Part shown: piece after piece, positions 821 to 7,036 of the stretch
Layout of the letters: each line of letters opens with the position of its first letter
Numbering within the stretch: position 1 is the stretch's first letter
UHGV virus genome: UHGV-0163678
Source: a virus
DNA length: 17,995 nt
Reading direction: 5' to 3' (one strand)
Made by a program: the position numbers and the translations under genes
The notes under the pieces: model-generated
Seen by the model: only the letters and a program-made list of their open reading frames with translations
Told to the model about the DNA's origin: nothing
The model's database searches: none

Positions 821-1192
821 TTACTTAAGAACGAGTCCGTTTAAGGCATCAAGGATTTTGGAAACATAACTTCCAAAAATGTAGGCGCAAAATGCGAACA
901 CGAAACTGACAACGACCGCAGATGCCTTGATGGTGATTTTTGCTGAGCTAATGCTTGTCTCAATACCTGACAGACGAGAATCTACAGATTTTATATCTGA
1001 CTTTACTTCAGCGAGATCGCGCTTGATGTATTCAACATCAGACTCTAGCTTTGCAACTCTAGCCTCAAGCATGTTACCTCCGCCGTTTCCTCCACCATGC
1101 CGTGAGTATGCATCATCAGTGGAATAGTGTCCAATTGGGCGAGATATGTTTTGATTTGGACGAAGCTGAGCAACCTTGTTATCTAAACTCAT
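821..1192 (-). CDS. Hypothetical tail-anchored membrane protein: Gly-rich N-terminal region, coiled coil, single C-terminal transmembrane helix; second gene of the rex-position cassette
   Basis: 123-aa ORF. AGGA about 10 nt upstream of the ATG; overlaps the upstream ORF by 14 nt. Sequence shows GGGNGGGN, a heptad-like segment LEARVAKLESDVEYIKRDLAEVKSDIKSVDSRL, and a hydrophobic stretch AVVVSFVFAFCAYIFGSYV. AT-rich by eye compared with cI. Confidence 0.55.
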   Translation of the reverse strand: MSLDNKVAQLRPNQNISRPIGHYSTDDAYSRHGGGNGGGNMLEARVAKLESDVEYIKRDLAEVKSDIKSVDSRLSGIETSISSAKITIKASAVVVSFVFAFCAYIFGSYVSKILDALNGLVLK

Positions 1193-1616
1193 CGCGAACT
1201 GATCCTGTTATCTTCACGTCAAAAAACGAACTTTTTACATCAATTACTTCGCCTTTATCAGGATTAACCAGTGATGCTCTAACTTCGAATATCCCAGGCT
1301 TGATAATTTTCACCCTTGGGAAGTTAATTCTCATAGAAGTTGATACGATGGTTTCTCCATCGTTGGCTTCTGCTACCGTAAAAAACTTATGGTTGGAGTA
1401 CAGTTTTGTGTCAATTGGTATCGGTATTTCTTGAGCATTGAAAACCTCAATGCCTATGGAATATTTTTTTGTAGCCTTAAGGCCGATAAAAAAAGCGCCA
1501 AATGATAGATCCACTTCATGGGAGTCTTTATCCATTTCATAGATAAGAACTGGAGTTACTGGGTTGCCTTCATCCATCGCAATCGGAATGATATAAGAAA
1601 TACGTTCTTTAATCAT
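1179..1616 (-). CDS. Hypothetical protein, first gene of the rex-position cassette downstream of cI
   Basis: 145-aa ORF starting 7 nt after the cI stop codon on the same strand, suggesting translational coupling. No motif I recognise. AT-rich by eye. Confidence 0.6.
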   Translation of the reverse strand: MIKERISYIIPIAMDEGNPVTPVLIYEMDKDSHEVDLSFGAFFIGLKATKKYSIGIEVFNAQEIPIPIDTKLYSNHKFFTVAEANDGETIVSTSMRINFPRVKIIKPGIFEVRASLVNPDKGEVIDVKSSFFDVKITGSVRDEFR

Positions 1617-1623
1617 TTACGTG

Positions 1624-2340
<717 letters not shown>

Positions 2341-2347
2341 TTAAATC

Positions 2348-2413
2348 TATCACCGCAAGGGATAAATATCTAACACCGTGCGTGTTGACTATTTTACCTC
2401 TAGCGGTGATAAT
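2348..2413. promoter_or_regulatory. Right operator OR3-OR2-OR1 with divergent pRM and pR promoters
   Basis: OR3 TATCACCGCAAGGGATA (2348..2364) and OR2 TAACACCGTGCGTGTTG (2371..2387) match lambda as recalled. OR1 (2395..2411) reads TACCTCTAGCGGTGATA, one base different from the canonical TACCTCTGGCGGTGATA. pR -35 TTGACT at 2384..2389 and -10 GATAAT at 2408..2413. Confidence 0.9.
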
Positions 2414-2428
2414 GGTTGCATGTACTAA

Positions 2429-2641
<213 letters not shown>

Positions 2642-2644
2642 CAC

Positions 2645-2690
2645 CGCTATTTTCACAATGGACATTCGTCCTACGTCGCTGACAAAGCGA
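2645..2690 (+). promoter_or_regulatory. nutR candidate: boxA-like CGCTATTTT plus boxB hairpin UCGCU-GACAA-AGCGA
   Basis: boxA-like 9-mer at 2645..2653. Perfect 5-bp stem with GACAA loop at 2676..2690, the same loop as the nutL candidate, directly downstream of cro. Confidence 0.5.
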
Positions 2691-2775
2691 GTCCCAAGAT
2701 ATCTGACCAACTAAGGCCATATGCGTTTCCACGCATACCTTTCAACTAACTATTCACTATTGGAAATCTTAAGAA

Positions 2776-3072
2776 ATGGAACGAACAAGTTACAGCAAAC
2801 TATCACAGCGTGACGTTGATCGCGCAGAAACTGATTTACTCATCAACCTGTCAACGCTTACCCAGCGCGGTCTGGCAAAGATGATTGGCTGTCATGAATC
2901 GAAGATAAGCAGAACGGACTGGAGATTTATTGCTTCGGTCTTGTGTGCTTTCGGAATGGCATCAGACATCAGTCCGATTAGCAGGGCTTTTAAGTATGCG
3001 CTTGATGAAATCACAAAGAAAAAATCCCCGGCCGCCACCGAGGATTTTAAGCAAATTGATATGCAATTCTGA
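2776..3072 (+). CDS. CII-like transcriptional activator (non-lambda allele)
   Basis: 98-aa ORF in the cII position. The C-terminal tail [17 protein letters not shown] parallels the lambda CII tail KKRPAATERSEQIQMEF as recalled; the rest is divergent. Confidence 0.65.
2786..2799 (-). promoter_or_regulatory. Candidate CII-binding site of a pRE-like promoter (TTGC-N6-TTGT on the minus strand)
   Basis: Direct tetranucleotide repeat with 6-bp spacing just inside the 5' end of the cII-like gene, oriented toward cro and cI, as at lambda pRE. Confidence 0.35.
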
Positions 3073-3104
3073 GGTCATTACTGGATCAATCCACAGGAGT
3101 AATT

Positions 3105-3251
3105 ATGACAAAACAACTCAGTCCTTACCAGGACAAAATTCACAAACACATACTACGTGATCGCTTCCTGTCCAGCTTCAAGCAGCCTGGTCGATTCCGG
3201 GCTGAGTTGGAAAAAGTGAAGCTGATGCAGAAGGAGAAAGGTCATGAGTAA
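3105..3251 (+). CDS. Small hypothetical ORF (48 aa) between cII-like and O-like genes
   Basis: ATG sits at the position homologous to the lambda O start, after the conserved GGTCATTACTGGATC junction. Reads [21 protein letters not shown]... and ends 8 nt inside the O-like gene. Below the ORF-track size cutoff; found by manual translation. Confidence 0.3.
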
Positions 3252-4104
3252 TCTTGCAACCGTAACACATTTAAGGCCTTCACAACGGCCTGTGGAGCGT
3301 CGTGTGGCAGAAGTTGAAGATGGTTATACCCGTCTTGCAAATGCCCTGTATGAAGAGCTTATCGGCGCAGATTTAACAAAAAATCAGAGTAAGGTTGCCC
3401 ACGCCATATGCCGTAAAACATACGGATACGGTAAAAAGATGGATCGCATCTCTGATAGTCAGTTAGCTCAAATTACCAGGCTGCCAAGACAGAAGGTAAA
3501 CAAGGCCAAGAATGAGCTTATCGCGATGAAGGTAATCCTTCGCGAAGGCCAGCAAATCGGGCCTAACAAGAACATCGAGGAATGGCAAATCGAAGGGTGT
3601 CACTACTCTGGTGATAATGTCACTGCATTGGTGACAAAAAGTGTCACCAAAACGGTGACAGCGCTGTCACCAAAACAGGGACACACAAAAGAAACTATTA
3701 CAAAAGAAAAAAGAAATAATAAAAACACTATGTCCGAAAGTGTTCGGACGGAGTGTGAAAAATCATCTGACCGTCACGAAGAAACCGACAAGGCATTCGA
3801 GGAAATATTCTGGTGTGCAGGCATGCGGAAAGCCGGGAAAAAAAACGCAGCTTCGGCATTCAGAACACAGTTCAGGGAATGGCGTAAAACTACCAGGGGT
3901 ACGGCAAGCGAGTTTGCCACGATGCTGGCAGAAGACATCGCATGCAGGAATGGTAAGCAGTTCGGATTCGACAGGTTGTTACCATCGAGCTACTTGAACG
4001 GTCAGCGCTGGAACGACGAAAAGCCAGAAACCATTCAACCACAATCCAAACCATCATCCGCAATCACCGTATCGAAAACTGGCTACGTGTTTTTCGACAG
4101 GTGA
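3244..4104 (+). CDS. Replication initiator, lambda O-like (origin-binding N-terminal domain; divergent C-terminal domain)
   Basis: 286 aa. N-terminal region aligns with lambda O as recalled (DGYxRLxNxL...GADLTKxQxKV...RKTYGxxKxMDRIxDSQL...GPNKNIxEW). Iterons and an AT-rich tract lie inside the gene, as at ori-lambda. Confidence 0.8.
3605..3730. repeat. Putative replication origin: dyad-symmetric iterons (GTGACA-N5-TGTCAC type) followed by an AT-rich tract
   Basis: Repeats such as GTGACAAAAAGTGTCAC (3631..3647), GGTGACAGCGCTGTCACC (3654..3671) and two GTCACCAAAAC units, followed by AAAAGAAACTATTACAAAAGAAAAAAGAAATAATAAAAAC. Same architecture as ori-lambda but a different iteron sequence. Confidence 0.6.
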
Positions 4105-4211
4105 ACCATGAAATCAAAAATCAAATCGCTACTGGTCGCTGGTTATAACCACGGCTGGTTAAGTATTTCGTTTGTCGATTTCTGGTTTAAAAATCTCAAT
4201 CTGAGGGAATC

Positions 4212-6092
4212 ATGAGGCCAAGTGAACTTAGCGACCTGCTTTGGGCGCAGGTTGACAGGGTGGCTCCGCACCTGTTGCCAAATGGCAAGAAAGAGGGGCA
4301 TGAGTGGGTTGCCGGTAACGTCAACGGTGACAAGGGAAACAGCCTTAAGGTCAACCTTAGCGGCAAGAAAAAATGGGCTGATTTCGCTGAGGGAGACGGC
4401 GGTGACATGCTTGATTTGTGGATGGCATGTCGTGGAATTAACCTGCATCAGGCTATGCAGGAAGCGAAAGCATTTCTCGGTATCAAGGATGACGATCACC
4501 ATTTCGATGCCAGACGTGAGAAGAAATTCTCCAGACCTGATCGCAAGAAAATCGCCCGCTACGTTACCAGAACAGAATCCCATCTTGAGTACCTGCAATC
4601 GCGTGGCATATCGCCAGAAGTCGTAAAGCGCTACGAGGTTGTCAGCGGCAAGGTGTGGAATGGAGAACGAGAACTGGATGCTCTGGTGCTTCCGTACAAA
4701 CGCGATGGTGAGTTGTTGCAGGTCAAGCGAATCAGCACTGAGCGCCCGGACGGGAAGAAAGTCATTATGGCAGAAGGTGATTGCGAACCTTGTCTGTTCG
4801 GATGGCAGGCTCTGGACGCTGGCGTGAGGGCGGTTGTGCTTTGCGAAGGCGAAATTGATTGTATGAGCTATGCGCAATACGGCATCTCGGCATTATCCGT
4901 GCCGTTTGGTGGAGGGAAAGGCGCTAAGCAACAGTGGATTGAGTTTGAGTATCACAACCTCGACAGGTTTGAGGAAATATTCATCTCGATGGACGTTGAT
5001 GATGTTGGTCGTGAAGCCGCAAGGGAAATCGCAAGCCGACTCGGTGAACATCGTTGCCGTCTTGTTACTCTGCCGTACAAAGACATCAACGAATGCCTGA
5101 TGAACGGTGTTACCGATGATGAAATCTGGCAGTACATCGGCACGGCATCCTACTTCGATCCTGAAGAACTCTACAGCGCGCGAGAGTTTTACCAGGACAC
5201 TATCAACGCTTTCTACGGCAAGCAGCAGTATCTGTTTAATCCACCGTGGGAATCTCTGGCAGATAAATTCCAGTTCCGTGAGGCCGAGTTGACGCTGGTC
5301 AATGGTGTGAACGGTCACGGAAAAACGGAGGTTGTCGGGCATATGGCACTTGAGGCAATGCGTCAGGGTGTGAAGACGTGCATCGCGTCACTTGAGCTGA
5401 AGCCAGGCATTCTCCTTAAGCGACTTACCCGTCAGGCGACGTGCTGCAAGATGCCGCCAGTGCTGGAAATTGACTCTGCATTTAAATTTTATGACGAAAG
5501 ACTTTGGGTGTTTGGCCTGACCGGAACGGCGAAAGCCGACAGGCTGATCGAAATATTCGACTACGCTCGCCGCCGATACGGCATCCAGTTATTCATCATC
5601 GACAGCCTGATGAAATGTGGCATAGGCGACGATGACTATAACGGGCAGAAGGCGTTTGTTGACTCGATTTGCGACTTCAAAAACAAAACAAACTCCCACG
5701 TCATTCTCGTTACTCACTCGCGAAAAGGAGACAGCGAAGAAAAACCAACCGGGAAAATGGACGTAAAAGGTTCTGGAGCGATAACAGACCTGACAGACAA
5801 CCTTTTCATCATCTGGCGTAACAAGGCTCGCGAGAGAGCGTTACAGAGAGTTCAGAGTGGTGAAAAGATGTCAGAGAAGGACGAACAGCTACTGGCATCT
5901 CCGGCATCTGTTTTGATGCTTGAAAAACAACGTAACGGCGAAGGTTGGGAAGGTGGTGTCCCGTTGTTCCTTGACGAGCAATCGCACCAGTTCCTGCAAC
6001 TTGAATCAGGATCGCCATATAGCTACATCGCCAATATGCCGAAATCGGAATATGACGAGGCGTGGCGACAGGAAAACGTGACGGAGTATTAA
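4212..6092 (+). CDS. Putative bifunctional primase-helicase (TOPRIM-like primase region with a C-terminal DnaB/RecA-like helicase domain)
   Basis: 626 aa. Acidic motifs typical of TOPRIM (VLCEGEIDCMSY, MDVDDVGREAA); Walker A-like GVNGHGKTEV and Walker B-like LFIIDSLMK. Occupies the position of lambda P, downstream of the O-like gene. Confidence 0.75.
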   Translation: MRPSELSDLLWAQVDRVAPHLLPNGKKEGHEWVAGNVNGDKGNSLKVNLSGKKKWADFAEGDGGDMLDLWMACRGINLHQAMQEAKAFLGIKDDDHHFDARREKKFSRPDRKKIARYVTRTESHLEYLQSRGISPEVVKRYEVVSGKVWNGERELDALVLPYKRDGELLQVKRISTERPDGKKVIMAEGDCEPCLFGWQALDAGVRAVVLCEGEIDCMSYAQYGISALSVPFGGGKGAKQQWIEFEYHNLDRFEEIFISMDVDDVGREAAREIASRLGEHRCRLVTLPYKDINECLMNGVTDDEIWQYIGTASYFDPEELYSAREFYQDTINAFYGKQQYLFNPPWESLADKFQFREAELTLVNGVNGHGKTEVVGHMALEAMRQGVKTCIASLELKPGILLKRLTRQATCCKMPPVLEIDSAFKFYDERLWVFGLTGTAKADRLIEIFDYARRRYGIQLFIIDSLMKCGIGDDDYNGQKAFVDSICDFKNKTNSHVILVTHSRKGDSEEKPTGKMDVKGSGAITDLTDNLFIIWRNKARERALQRVQSGEKMSEKDEQLLASPASVLMLEKQRNGEGWEGGVPLFLDEQSHQFLQLESGSPYSYIANMPKSEYDEAWRQENVTEY

Positions 6093-6362
6093 ATGAATAA
6101 AAAACAATTAGCCATTCTCGAAAAGGCATGGGATGCACAAATATCATACGCTTTGAAAGAACAGGCACTACCAATAATCCAGACCAAATCGAAAATAGCC
6201 AGGCAGTTATGCGATGACGGATTCCTGAACGAAGTTGAGATTACGCGCCAGATGGTAACGTTCAAAGGGTATGAGATAAATCATCATGGTATAGCGGCGT
6301 ATTGCTCCCATCTTCCTGATGACGTTGGCATTGATGAAATGGAAAGGGAGATGAAGCAATGA
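6093..6362 (+). CDS. Hypothetical protein
   Basis: 89-aa ORF whose ATG directly follows the primase-helicase stop codon (TAAATG). Confidence 0.5.
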   Translation: MNKKQLAILEKAWDAQISYALKEQALPIIQTKSKIARQLCDDGFLNEVEITRQMVTFKGYEINHHGIAAYCSHLPDDVGIDEMEREMKQ

Positions 6363-6442
6363 CCATCTACATCACTGAGCTATTGACAGGCCTGCTGGTA
6401 ATCGCAGGCCTTTTTATTTGGGGGAGAGTAAATCGTGGCTGA
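6359..6442 (+). CDS. Small hydrophobic peptide (27 aa, one predicted transmembrane helix)
   Basis: ATGA start-stop overlap with the upstream 89-aa ORF. Sequence MTIYITELLTGLLVIAGLFIWGRVNRG. Found by manual translation, below the ORF-track cutoff. Confidence 0.3.
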   Translation: MTIYITELLTGLLVIAGLFIWGRVNRG

Positions 6443-6641
6443 GTTAATTTTATCTGCATTGAGGATTCTCGGTGCTATGTGGATGGTGGCGACGTTCATT
6501 GTGGTTGTCAGCAGTTTTGTCCGGTTGGTAGGCGAAGGTAAAGACCTGGTGGGTGTGCTTTTCGGTAGCATTCTCCTGTGGGGGATTATCGGTGTTGCGC
6601 CTGTTGTCGTAGCAAAAATGGCGTGGCGTTTTGTGAGTTGA
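6435..6641 (+). CDS. Small membrane protein (68 aa, two predicted transmembrane helices)
   Basis: GTG start overlapping the end of the 27-aa ORF; two long hydrophobic stretches. Confidence 0.4.
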   Translation: MAELILSALRILGAMWMVATFIVVVSSFVRLVGEGKDLVGVLFGSILLWGIIGVAPVVVAKMAWRFVS

Positions 6642-6658
6642 ACTGAGGGTAAGTATCG

Positions 6659-7036
6659 ATGGACGAATCAAGAAAGCAGTTTGAAGAAAGTTGGTTGCGA
6701 CGTGGAGGCGAATCATCAGACCTTATCCGTTACCCTGAAAATCACCATGAAATTGGCAGTGGTGATATTGGTGGTCAATACGTGATGGACGATGTTCAAG
6801 GCCACTGGCAAACGTGGCAGGCATCGCGAGCAGCTATTGAACTGGATATCGACTGGCCCGAATCGAATGACGACTTTTGGAAAGATGGTGAAGAAGGTGC
6901 TTATGCGATGGGGCATGAGGATGGGAAGGACAAAACGGTAATTGCAGTGATGAAAGCTATCAGAGCCGCTGGAATTAAAGAGAAGAATTTCGATGAAGCA
7001 AATATACATACTTCGCAACGAAGCAATCAGAAATAA
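6659..7036 (+). CDS. Hypothetical protein
   Basis: 125-aa acidic ORF; overlaps the ninB start by 44 nt. Confidence 0.45.
   Translation: MDESRKQFEESWLRRGGESSDLIRYPENHHEIGSGDIGGQYVMDDVQGHWQTWQASRAAIELDIDWPESNDDFWKDGEEGAYAMGHEDGKDKTVIAVMKAIRAAGIKEKNFDEANIHTSQRSNQK

Follow-up and report, generated by a model that had tools for sequence, protein, structure and literature searches.

The region between cII and the replication genes has been laid out by Hayes et al. (2012; PMC3349717) as cII-oop-'orf'-O-P, with lambda naturally without orf48, and with an oop promoter, pO, that has a common -10 but a divergent -35. In the P22 annotation, this promoter is placed over nt 1-26 of orf48. Relatives of this ORF are annotated as CDS in P22 (orf48), HK022 (HK022_53, gp53) and HK620 (hkaW), and relatives of a second small ORF, located between the stop of an O-like gene and the start of a T7-gp4-like primase-helicase gene, carry a CDS annotation in ES18 (gp60) and epsilon34 (gp51). 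Termination-reinitiation pairs, among them lambda O-P (ATGA) and those of many phage operons, comprise ATGA or TAATG overlaps with the Shine-Dalgarno sequence (SD) of the downstream gene inside the upstream CDS.

We have analyzed a window of 17,995 nt (the whole stretch of DNA, from virus genome UHGV-0163678), in which two ORFs of 48 and 35 residues, here ORF48 and ORF35, adjoin the replication genes. An earlier note had described the first as ending 8 nt inside an O-like gene that starts at 3244 in another frame, and the second as lying between the O-like stop and the primase-helicase start with an ATGA overlap; both arrangements were confirmed, and all coordinates hold. We consider it probable that ORF48 and ORF35 are genuine small protein-coding genes, belonging to the early-right (pR) operon that carries the replication genes of a P22-like/lambdoid phage, and are not debris. 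The features of the region are as follows.

3015..3094, minus strand: oop-like antisense RNA with approximate ends, from a terminator scan and alignment with lambda oop and the P22 oop region
3095..3099, plus strand: SD AGGAG for ORF48, the element serving O in lambda; duplex with the anti-SD -6.9 kcal/mol
3102..3107, minus strand: pO -10 hexamer CATAAT, overlapping the ORF48 start codon; invariant in the window, lambda and P22
3105..3251, plus strand: ORF48, ATG 3105 to TAA 3251, 48 aa, basic; Pfam PF10872
3231..3236, plus strand: SD AAGGAG for the O-like gene, inside ORF48 codons 43-44, 7 nt before ATG 3244
3244..4104, plus strand: O-like replication initiator, ATG 3244, +1 frame relative to ORF48; stop TGA 4102-4104
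3598..3725, no strand: replication origin within the O-like gene, from its repeats and the 'similar to lambda ori' annotated in relatives
4099..4104, plus strand: SD AGGTGA for ORF35, overlapping the O-like stop codon; duplex with the 16S 3' end -8.4 kcal/mol
4108..4215, plus strand: ORF35, ATG 4108 to TGA 4215, 35 aa; PHROG 21848
4203..4206, plus strand: SD GAGG for the primase-helicase, inside the Leu-Arg codons of ORF35, 5 nt before ATG 4212; -8.3 kcal/mol
4212..6092, plus strand: bifunctional Toprim primase/DnaB-like helicase of T7 gp4/Twinkle type, 626 aa (Pfam, PHROG)

Alignment with the lambda cII-O junction bears out the earlier proposal that the ATG of ORF48 is homologous to the lambda O start, with homology running through the start codon and the SD. 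Homology of the segment 3070-3112 (GAGGTCATTACTGGATCAATCCACAGGAGTAATTATGACAAA) to lambda takes in the SD and start codon of O and ends there; similarity resumes where O has its conserved codons ER.VA..DDGY. Homologous elements are the terminator and body of oop, the pO -10, the SD and the ATG, but the ATG that opens O itself in lambda opens ORF48 in the window, with the SD and ATG of the initiator 139 nt downstream. The terminator of the oop-like RNA, a 12-bp stem (3048-3021) followed by a T run on the minus strand, lies within the 3' end of cII, and the P22 annotation has an oop terminator and promoter in the corresponding position; an Rfam scan of the whole window gave no family at gathering score, and the RNA was recognized only via the lambda/P22 alignment and its terminator. 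The pO -35 region falls within ORF48 codons 6-9. Downstream, the N-terminal Phage_rep_O domain of the O-like protein is 49% identical to lambda O, its C-terminal domain (~aa 158-286, tail ...GYVF) is unrelated to lambda O, and the origin comprises four ~19-nt iterons, TGTCAC-N7-GGTGACA (3598-3683), and then an A+T-rich stretch (3685-3725), at a place annotated as 'similar to lambda ori' in ES18, epsilon34 and P22. The primase-helicase, for which 2115 homologues were found, matches Pfam Toprim_2, AAA_25 and DnaB_C as well as PHROG 239.

Judged by its sequence, ORF48 is the same gene as P22 orf48, in the catalogued DUF2740 family. Its match to the Pfam model (PF10872) spans profile positions 1-43 of 43 at 99.4 bits, well above the curated gathering cut-off of 27 (E = 8.9e-29), and its size and place are those of the family: ~48 aa, with a gene that follows a cII-like gene/oop and overlaps the first replication gene. 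A match to ORF48 was found in 127 phage records, and the identical copies in E. coli bear the PGAP label 'DUF2740 family protein'. Diverged homologues were also recognized in prophages of Proteus (L221) and Xenorhabdus (L222), without a recorded Phage_CII match upstream. ORF48 overlaps the next gene in every locus that carries it, mostly by 8 nt and by 4 nt (ATGA) in two loci (L223 and L224), and this overlap is kept whether the gene that follows is a lambda-type O, an HK022 O, P22 gene 18 or a T5orf172 gene. The position it occupies, after the cII/oop/pO segment and ahead of the first replication gene, is itself a variable slot. ORF48 is predicted to be a two-helix hairpin, with helices at residues 7-23 and 28-44 in an AlphaFold2 model (pLDDT 81) that had no Foldseek match in the PDB; the PDB gave only weak sequence matches (PhnI, E = 0.07), which we attribute to chance.

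ORF48 also matches phrog_1913, which, like RefSeq, attaches the label 'tail protein' to DUF2740. We rejected this label, given that the gene sits between cII and O, as part of the early-right operon, in all genomes examined, and comparison with solved proteins by structure and sequence yielded no match; the label on DUF2740 proteins appears to be an unsupported, propagated mis-annotation. The 'orf48' (gnarl1) of PMC12373910 bears a library number, its gene having been reported from lytic phages, and was taken as unrelated. For either ORF, sequence, profile, PADLOC, PDB and Foldseek searches found no homology to any characterized protein, and PADLOC gave no defense or anti-defense matches. A literature search on DUF2740 and hkaW turned up nothing useful, and a search of the accessible literature found no expression, ribosome-occupancy or protein data for ORF48 or ORF35.

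ORF35 matches phrog_21848 over residues 1-34 on profile positions 1-34 of 35 (E = 4.4e-26), which is a full-length match, and its place, directly before a gene for a Toprim/DnaB-like primase-helicase, is typical of this family, for which Pfam and NCBIfam have no model. With homologues gathered by a degenerate DNA pattern together with helicase context, prophages of eight further genera proved to carry a 35-codon counterpart ahead of a homologous primase-helicase gene, the genera named including Proteus, Xenorhabdus, Erwinia, Pragia, Pantoea and Citrobacter. The family consensus reads MK[SP]rIKxLL[IV]aGYNHG[WL][LI]Sxx[FV]Vx[FY]WFxx[LF]xL[RK]xx, with GYNHG and FVxFWF as conserved motifs, and the same 35-codon core from the conserved MK start was present in all ten loci compared (10/10). 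ORF35 was intact in 117 of 120 IMG/VR loci, and of the other three, two have a common indel close to the start and one is truncated by the end of its contig. A remote search of 1.84 billion representatives returned only three true relatives because ORF35 is rarely called as a gene: most of the prophage loci and RefSeq records that we examined lack a call for it, and it is left unannotated in many records (Min27, Stx2a_F451 and RefSeq E. coli among the matches listed). A single-sequence structure model gave one long helix, to which we attach little weight since the conserved GYNHG motif suggests a turn.

At all three junctions, a stop overlaps or lies near the downstream start, the geometry of translationally coupled pairs: ORF48 and the O-like gene share 8 nt (ATGAGTAA, 3244-3251), the O-like stop and ORF35 are separated by 3 nt (4105-4107), and ORF35 shares ATGA (4212-4215) with the primase-helicase gene. 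Across relatives, these tight junctions take the forms ATGA, TAATG, TGATG, GTGA and TGAattATG, and their upkeep in several forms would fit translational coupling. The duplex of the O-like SD reaches -10.0 kcal/mol, beyond a cut-off of -8.8 reached by only 4.7% of the ATGs in the window, and the SD-like purine run is kept in all homologues though the encoded residues change; likewise, the context of the primase-helicase SD, CTGAGG or TTGAGG, is retained in nearly all alleles. Since both the O-like and helicase starts have strong SDs of their own and no RNA structure occluding them was found (z-scores not significant), the dependence of their translation on that of ORF48 and ORF35 may be partial, with coupling possibly dispensable. 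Fused products were rejected. The O-like gene and ORF35 are in frame in the window (TGA ACC ATG) but the homologues in Proteus, Xenorhabdus and Erwinia have them in different frames, so read-through is not a conserved feature; for a frameshift between ORF48 and O, the O frame is closed by TGA at 3216-3218 and 3222-3224, and no slippery site is present.

The mere existence of two such ORFs is not above chance, with 65 ORFs of at least 30 aa overlapping 2000..7000 on both strands; what lifts both above chance are the Pfam and PHROG matches, reading frames kept in hundreds of relatives and frame-specific purifying selection. For ORF48, pN/pS in frame was 0.28-0.41 vs. 0.96-1.33 in the other forward frames, and codons 10-40, away from pO and the SD, gave 0.28. 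For ORF35, in a set gathered through the helicase and not through the peptide, pS was 0.72 and pN 0.22, a ratio of 0.31 compared with 0.95 and 1.68 in the control forward frames, with pairwise Fisher p values down to 1e-5. These ratios indicate that both ORFs evolve under purifying selection at the amino-acid level, i.e., as proteins. Conservation at their ends is partly explained by the overlapping signals, namely pO, the SDs and the start codons. The earlier note had also entertained that the ORFs are relics of remodeling at the module junctions. On such a reading, they would be chance frames left by mosaic recombination, and their conservation would reflect recent ancestry and cis-elements (pO, SDs and possibly an RNA hairpin in ORF48). 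ORFs this small often arise by chance, many copies differ hardly at all (the best 80 IMG/VR matches to ORF48 are all 100% identical at the protein level), nt 1-26 of ORF48 overlap pO, and an 8-bp hairpin (3183-3204) is invariant in six of seven diverse sequences, including at 4-fold sites. However, this hairpin shows no covariation and is broken in an Erwinia phage copy, and was thus rejected as a conserved RNA element; divergent homologues with saturated synonymous sites retain frame, length and motifs, as the conservation check proposed in the earlier note also showed for the frames of both ORFs in related phages, and the other forward frames show no constraint. ORF35, moreover, is exactly 35 codons down to ~50% identity, ORF48 belongs to a catalogued family, and the frames survive disturbance of the junctions by insertion of an HNH endonuclease gene, of 130 nt or of a T5orf172 gene. 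With amino-acid selection acting on both ORFs, we regard relics as highly improbable.

It is also conceivable, albeit unlikely, that both ORFs act purely as coupling leaders, delivering ribosomes to the initiator and helicase starts and fixing stoichiometry, with functionless peptides. The re-creation of tight stop/start junctions in at least five sequence forms, the position of the downstream SDs inside the 3' codons of the small ORFs, these codons being the most constrained at the C-termini, and the overlap of ORF48 with the following gene wherever it is present all speak for such a role. A regulatory leader peptide or uORF of irrelevant sequence, however, would be without amino-acid constraint outside overlapping signals, and neither ORF48 nor ORF35 is of this kind: purifying selection extends to central codons distant from all such signals, the motifs HKNILRDRF (ORF48) and GYNHG and FVxFWF (ORF35) are still recognizable when overall identity has fallen to 28-50%, and ORF35 stays intact where the helicase junction is broken, be it by an HNH endonuclease gene inserted at the ORF35 stop (L123, L076) or by a 130-nt insertion (phiKp_30). 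The strong independent SDs of the downstream starts also argue against mere leaders. A further reading, on balance improbable, would make ORF48 a modulator of lysis-lysogeny, as a CIII-like protector of CII or a partner in a cII/oop switch, and not a replication factor. In most phages ORF48 comes directly after cII, atop pO/oop; like lambda CIII, with which it has a local QPG match, it is a small, basic, helical protein. Nevertheless, hhalign against lambda CIII gave a probability of 0.7% over 11 aligned columns, on which we rejected a CIII-like function, and a Pfam scan returned no CIII family. In addition, where a 251-aa gene has been inserted after cII (L228), ORF48 stays adjacent to O and not to cII, and the homologues in Proteus and Xenorhabdus have no recorded Phage_CII match upstream.

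In the preferred reading, that of two genuine genes, ORF48 has taken over the SD and ATG used by lambda for O, at a site that is also the -10 of the antisense oop promoter, and its last codons carry the SD and start codon of the initiator gene. ORF35 is part of the primase-helicase module, moving as a block with its two neighbors, the C-terminal domain or tail of the initiator to the left and the T7-gp4-like primase-helicase to the right; this C-terminal domain or tail is common to different N-terminal DNA-binding domains that precede ORF35 and the helicase, and the one helicase homologue examined with an unrelated upstream gene was without ORF35. Ribosomes ending ORF48 or ORF35 may re-initiate at, or unfold, the adjacent starts, such that synthesis of initiator and helicase would be tied to the upstream frames, atop independent initiation at their own strong SDs. 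We infer from position that both peptides are accessory factors of replication initiation, with ORF35 possibly at the interface of the initiator C-terminal domain and the primase-helicase, and ORF48 acting on or with the initiator or the origin complex. A bolder version, which we consider doubtful, is that ORF35 is an obligate 35-residue adaptor bridging these two partners and that ORF48 tunes the initiator at the origin; if so, ORF35 would in effect be the smallest known helicase-recruitment/loading factor, co-inherited with both partners as one module. Neither ORF is universally required, because lambda and other phages replicate without ORF48 and at least one homologous primase-helicase is without ORF35.

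The content of this region is ordinary, consisting largely of known phage genes, with a modest gain in annotation for ORF35. Within these bounds, the analysis settles two frames as genes rather than debris, documents ORF35 as a conserved micro-protein usually skipped by automatic annotation, and flags as unsupported the 'tail protein' label propagated on DUF2740 proteins. Both peptides are central to lambdoid replication modules, a subject of research for decades, and offer inexpensive and well-defined targets for knock-outs and pull-downs.

In comparison with known systems, ORF48 shares with P22 orf48, HK620 hkaW and HK022 gp53 its family, its length of 48 aa, the slot between the cII-like gene/oop and the initiator, the 8-nt ATGAGTAA overlap and a 5' end over the oop promoter; its identity is 85% to P22 orf48 and 100% to the copies in HK022 and HK620. 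Its companions in the window are lambda immunity, a lambda-type O N-terminus and a primase-helicase, whereas P22 has genes 18 and 12; there is no essential difference between the loci. ORF35 is the same 35-aa ORF as ES18 gp60 (97% identity) and the epsilon34 allele gp51 (71%), all three lying after the stop of the O-like gene and before the start of the T7-gp4-like primase-helicase. HK97 gp53, ES18 gp58 and epsilon34 gp49 (~53 aa), with a relative in Pragia (L226), share the slot, SD-ATG and first codons of ORF48 and also overlap the initiator start, but differ from it in sequence family and constitute an alternative cassette for the position. Lastly, as compared with termination-reinitiation pairs of the lambda O-P type, the upstream partners here are very short ORFs with conserved peptide sequences.

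The window comes from an E. coli phage or prophage of the lambdoid, P22-like (Lederbergvirus-type) kind and carries its immunity and early-right region, in which the genes lie in the order given below; the closest relatives overall are vB_EcoP-720R6, mEp043, Sf101 and SEN22:

1624..2337, minus strand, cI, lambda-type
2438..2641, cro
2776..3072, cII (Phage_CII)
3105..3251, ORF48, 48 residues
3244..4104, O-like initiator, N-terminal domain Phage_rep_O
4108..4215, ORF35, 35 residues
4212..6092, primase-helicase (Toprim and DnaB-like)

All coordinates that the earlier note had claimed for the two short ORFs are correct: ORF48 ends 8 nt within the O-like gene (overlap ATGAGTAA), and ORF35 starts 3 nt past the O-like TGA and shares ATGA with the primase-helicase ATG. 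Chance alone yields many ORFs of this size (65 of at least 30 residues within 5 kb), and the case for both thus rests on conservation. ORF35 lies in the O-like frame (TGA ACC ATG, 4102-4110), such that UGA read-through would yield an O-ORF35 fusion, and one database protein, P0179, looks like this fusion; homologues from Proteus, Xenorhabdus and Erwinia do not retain the shared frame. Elsewhere, two ORFs of 145 and 123 residues (821-1616, minus strand) lie just past the cI 3' end, at the position where lambda carries rexA/rexB; they have no significant Pfam match, the sole match being weak and XhlA-like, and may be accessory or exclusion genes expressed from the prophage. The window Cro appears to equal lambda Cro except for R39N and the last residues (...NKKQLHK vs. 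lambda ...NKKTTA), which would suggest a mosaic joint at the extreme end of cro (2620-2641).

ORF48 has been described as a gene before. It matches Pfam DUF2740 (8.9e-29) and is the same gene as P22 orf48, HK620 hkaW, HK022 ORF 29890..30036 and VT2-Sakai H0097, being carried by 127 phage records, 370 IMG/VR stretches and 400 of 5426 complete E. coli genomes, where PGAP names it "DUF2740 family protein". Hayes et al. (PMC3349717) give the layout as cII-oop-"orf"-O-P, describe orf48 as naturally absent from lambda and place "position 1" at the shared ATG; studies of P22 regard orf48 as dispensable for prophage maintenance or merely include it in replication-module phagemids, and no paper that we found assigns it a function. 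DUF2740 proteins also carry the label "tail protein" (phrog_1913 and RefSeq phage records, e.g. NC_002371 and NC_019706), which looks like a propagated mis-annotation because all genomes examined have the gene in their early-right operon.

We compared six to nine diverse ORF48 copies (Escherichia, Salmonella, Erwinia, Enterobacter, Citrobacter, Atlantibacter and Pseudescherichia). In the proposed frame, pN/pS (the non-synonymous/synonymous ratio) was 0.41 for the whole ORF48 and 0.28 for codons 10-40, which are clear of pO (the oop promoter, minus strand), the Shine-Dalgarno sequence (SD) and the O start, as compared to 0.96-1.33 for both regions in the two other forward frames; this pattern indicates that ORF48 evolves as a protein. 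Distant copies (28-47% identity) in Proteus, Xenorhabdus, Pantoea, Erwinia and Citrobacter prophages retain [VM]HKN[IL]xRDxF in helix 1 and L[RK]xx[LI]ExxK in helix 2 of a two-helix hairpin (H7-23 and H28-44, pLDDT 81) predicted by AlphaFold2 with the family alignment; ORF48 had no PDB match by sequence or by fold. An 8-bp RNA hairpin (3183-3204, CAGCCTGG/CCGGGCTG) lies inside codons 27-34, with four-fold sites that do not vary among 6 of 7 divergent copies; covariation was not found, the copy in the Erwinia phage disrupts the hairpin, and the pattern may merely mirror the most conserved protein segment.

We aligned the cII-O junction of the window with those of lambda, P22, HK022, ES18 and PhiR12_1. 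As the earlier note had supposed in calling the ORF48 ATG homologous to the lambda O start, the stretch running from the cII stop via the SD (AGGAG) to ATGACAAA is common to the window and lambda; past this segment, which is the oop/pO region, lambda runs straight into O whereas the window, P22 and HK022 have ORF48. An oop-like antisense RNA gene occupies 3015-3107 on the minus strand, with a lambda-like intrinsic terminator (minus strand, 3048-3021) and no Rfam match; its pO -10 hexamer (CATAAT, complementary to 3102-3107) hence overlaps the ORF48 start codon, and in the P22 annotation the oop promoter covers nt 1-26 of orf48. Further downstream, the O-like gene contains a lambda-type origin (3598-3725) with four iterons of ~19 nt each (TGTCAC-N7-GGTGACA) and then an A+T-rich stretch, followed by a 14-nt inverted repeat (3725-3756).

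The neighbours of ORF48 vary. The gene overlapping its stop may be a lambda-type O, HK022 O, P22 gene 18 or a T5orf172-domain gene, and the helicase partner may be lambda P, a DnaB-like helicase or a primase-helicase. In Salmonella phage S107, a T5orf172/MUG113-domain gene (1173-1775 of that locus) lies between ORF48 and an HTH_36/DnaD_N-type initiator, and it is this gene that has the 8-nt overlap with ORF48 there. A Citrobacter prophage has a 251-residue gene between cII and the ORF48 homologue, which still overlaps O. ES18, epsilon34 and HK97 carry in the same slot, with the same SD and ATG, an unrelated ORF of ~53 residues. The slot immediately before the replication genes is therefore variable, with ORF48 as one of at least two alternative cassettes. 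The initiator SD and start codon dictate the C-terminal residues of ORF48, KGHE.

By sequence comparison, ORF35 is a conserved micro-gene that is mostly unannotated. It matches phrog_21848 (4.4e-26) but neither a Pfam nor an NCBIfam model; ES18 (gp60), epsilon34 (gp51), g341c and 720R6 have it annotated, whereas Min27, Stx2a_F451 and the RefSeq E. coli entries listed do not, and it is so far catalogued only as this PHROG and in these few annotations. A degenerate-pattern scan of IMG/VR recovered 120 loci (27 DNA alleles), with ORF35 intact in 117, two sharing a common indel near the start and one cut by a contig end. To guard against ascertainment bias, a second set was gathered via the primase-helicase protein (69-79% identity); all of these prophages (Proteus, Xenorhabdus, Erwinia, Pragia, Pantoea and Citrobacter) have the ~110-nt gap with a homologous ORF35, uncalled by the gene caller in 5 of 6 loci. 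In the ORF35 frame pS was 0.72 and pN 0.22 (pN/pS 0.31), vs. 0.36 and 0.34 (0.95) and 0.22 and 0.36 (1.68) in the two control frames, with pairwise Fisher p values, each against the window, of 1e-5 to 0.01. The consensus is MK[SP]rIKxLL[IV]aGYNHG[WL][LI]Sxx[FV]Vx[FY]WFxx[LF]xL[RK]xx.

The earlier note had left two readings of these ORFs, as small regulatory proteins coupled to the replication genes or as relics of remodelling at module junctions. In relatives both reading frames are kept, with pN/pS low only in the proposed frames. The ORF35/helicase junction takes the forms ATGA, TAATG, TGATG, GTGA (with a GTG start) and TGAattATG, and is broken only by a putative HNH endonuclease gene (loci L123 and L076) or a 130-nt insertion (phiKp_30, L083), with ORF35 intact in these cases despite the break. 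Given this, and the protein-level selection on both ORFs, we reject the relic reading. The interrupting gene in L123 (1151-1645, minus-strand orientation) encodes 164 residues exactly at the ORF35 stop, splitting ORF35 from the primase-helicase, and likewise in L076; judged by eye, it looks like a HNH/NUMOD-type homing endonuclease.

As to coupling, the SDs of the downstream genes sit within the last codons of ORF48 and ORF35, and anti-SD duplex energies are -6.9, -10.0, -8.4 and -8.3 kcal/mol at the ORF48, O-like, ORF35 and primase-helicase starts, respectively, vs. a mean of -4.1 kcal/mol for all 402 ATGs in the window; no stable RNA structure occluding the starts was found. The geometry therefore fits translational coupling, with independent initiation equally possible. 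As far as sequence analysis goes, the data support small proteins, possibly regulatory, that are translationally linked to the replication genes.

The window initiator is modular: its N-terminal half is lambda-like (49% identity) and its C-terminal half is unrelated to lambda O, being common instead to the initiator of L136 (49% identity) and, in L123, fused to a different HTH N-terminal domain; the S107 initiator has only its last 19 residues in common with that of the window (100% identity), and initiators from Proteus, Xenorhabdus, Erwinia, Pragia, Pantoea and Citrobacter again show the tail G[YL]V[FY]. Among the window, L123, L136 and S107, one C-terminal domain or tail is joined to N-terminal DNA-binding domains of at least three unrelated kinds. 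This domain or tail co-travels with ORF35 and the primase-helicase; L136 has a 49%-identical ORF35 before a diverged primase-helicase, beside a different initiator, and a helicase homologue behind an unrelated 372-residue gene is without both the initiator tail and ORF35. The co-occurrence places ORF35 in the helicase module. Strict conservation and this linkage are what is new for ORF35, a modest and unsurprising addition. Lambda O recruits P-DnaB through its C-terminal domain; by analogy, the block of initiator C-terminal domain, ORF35 and helicase probably contains the helicase-recruitment interface, and it is from this likeness that we infer a role for ORF35.
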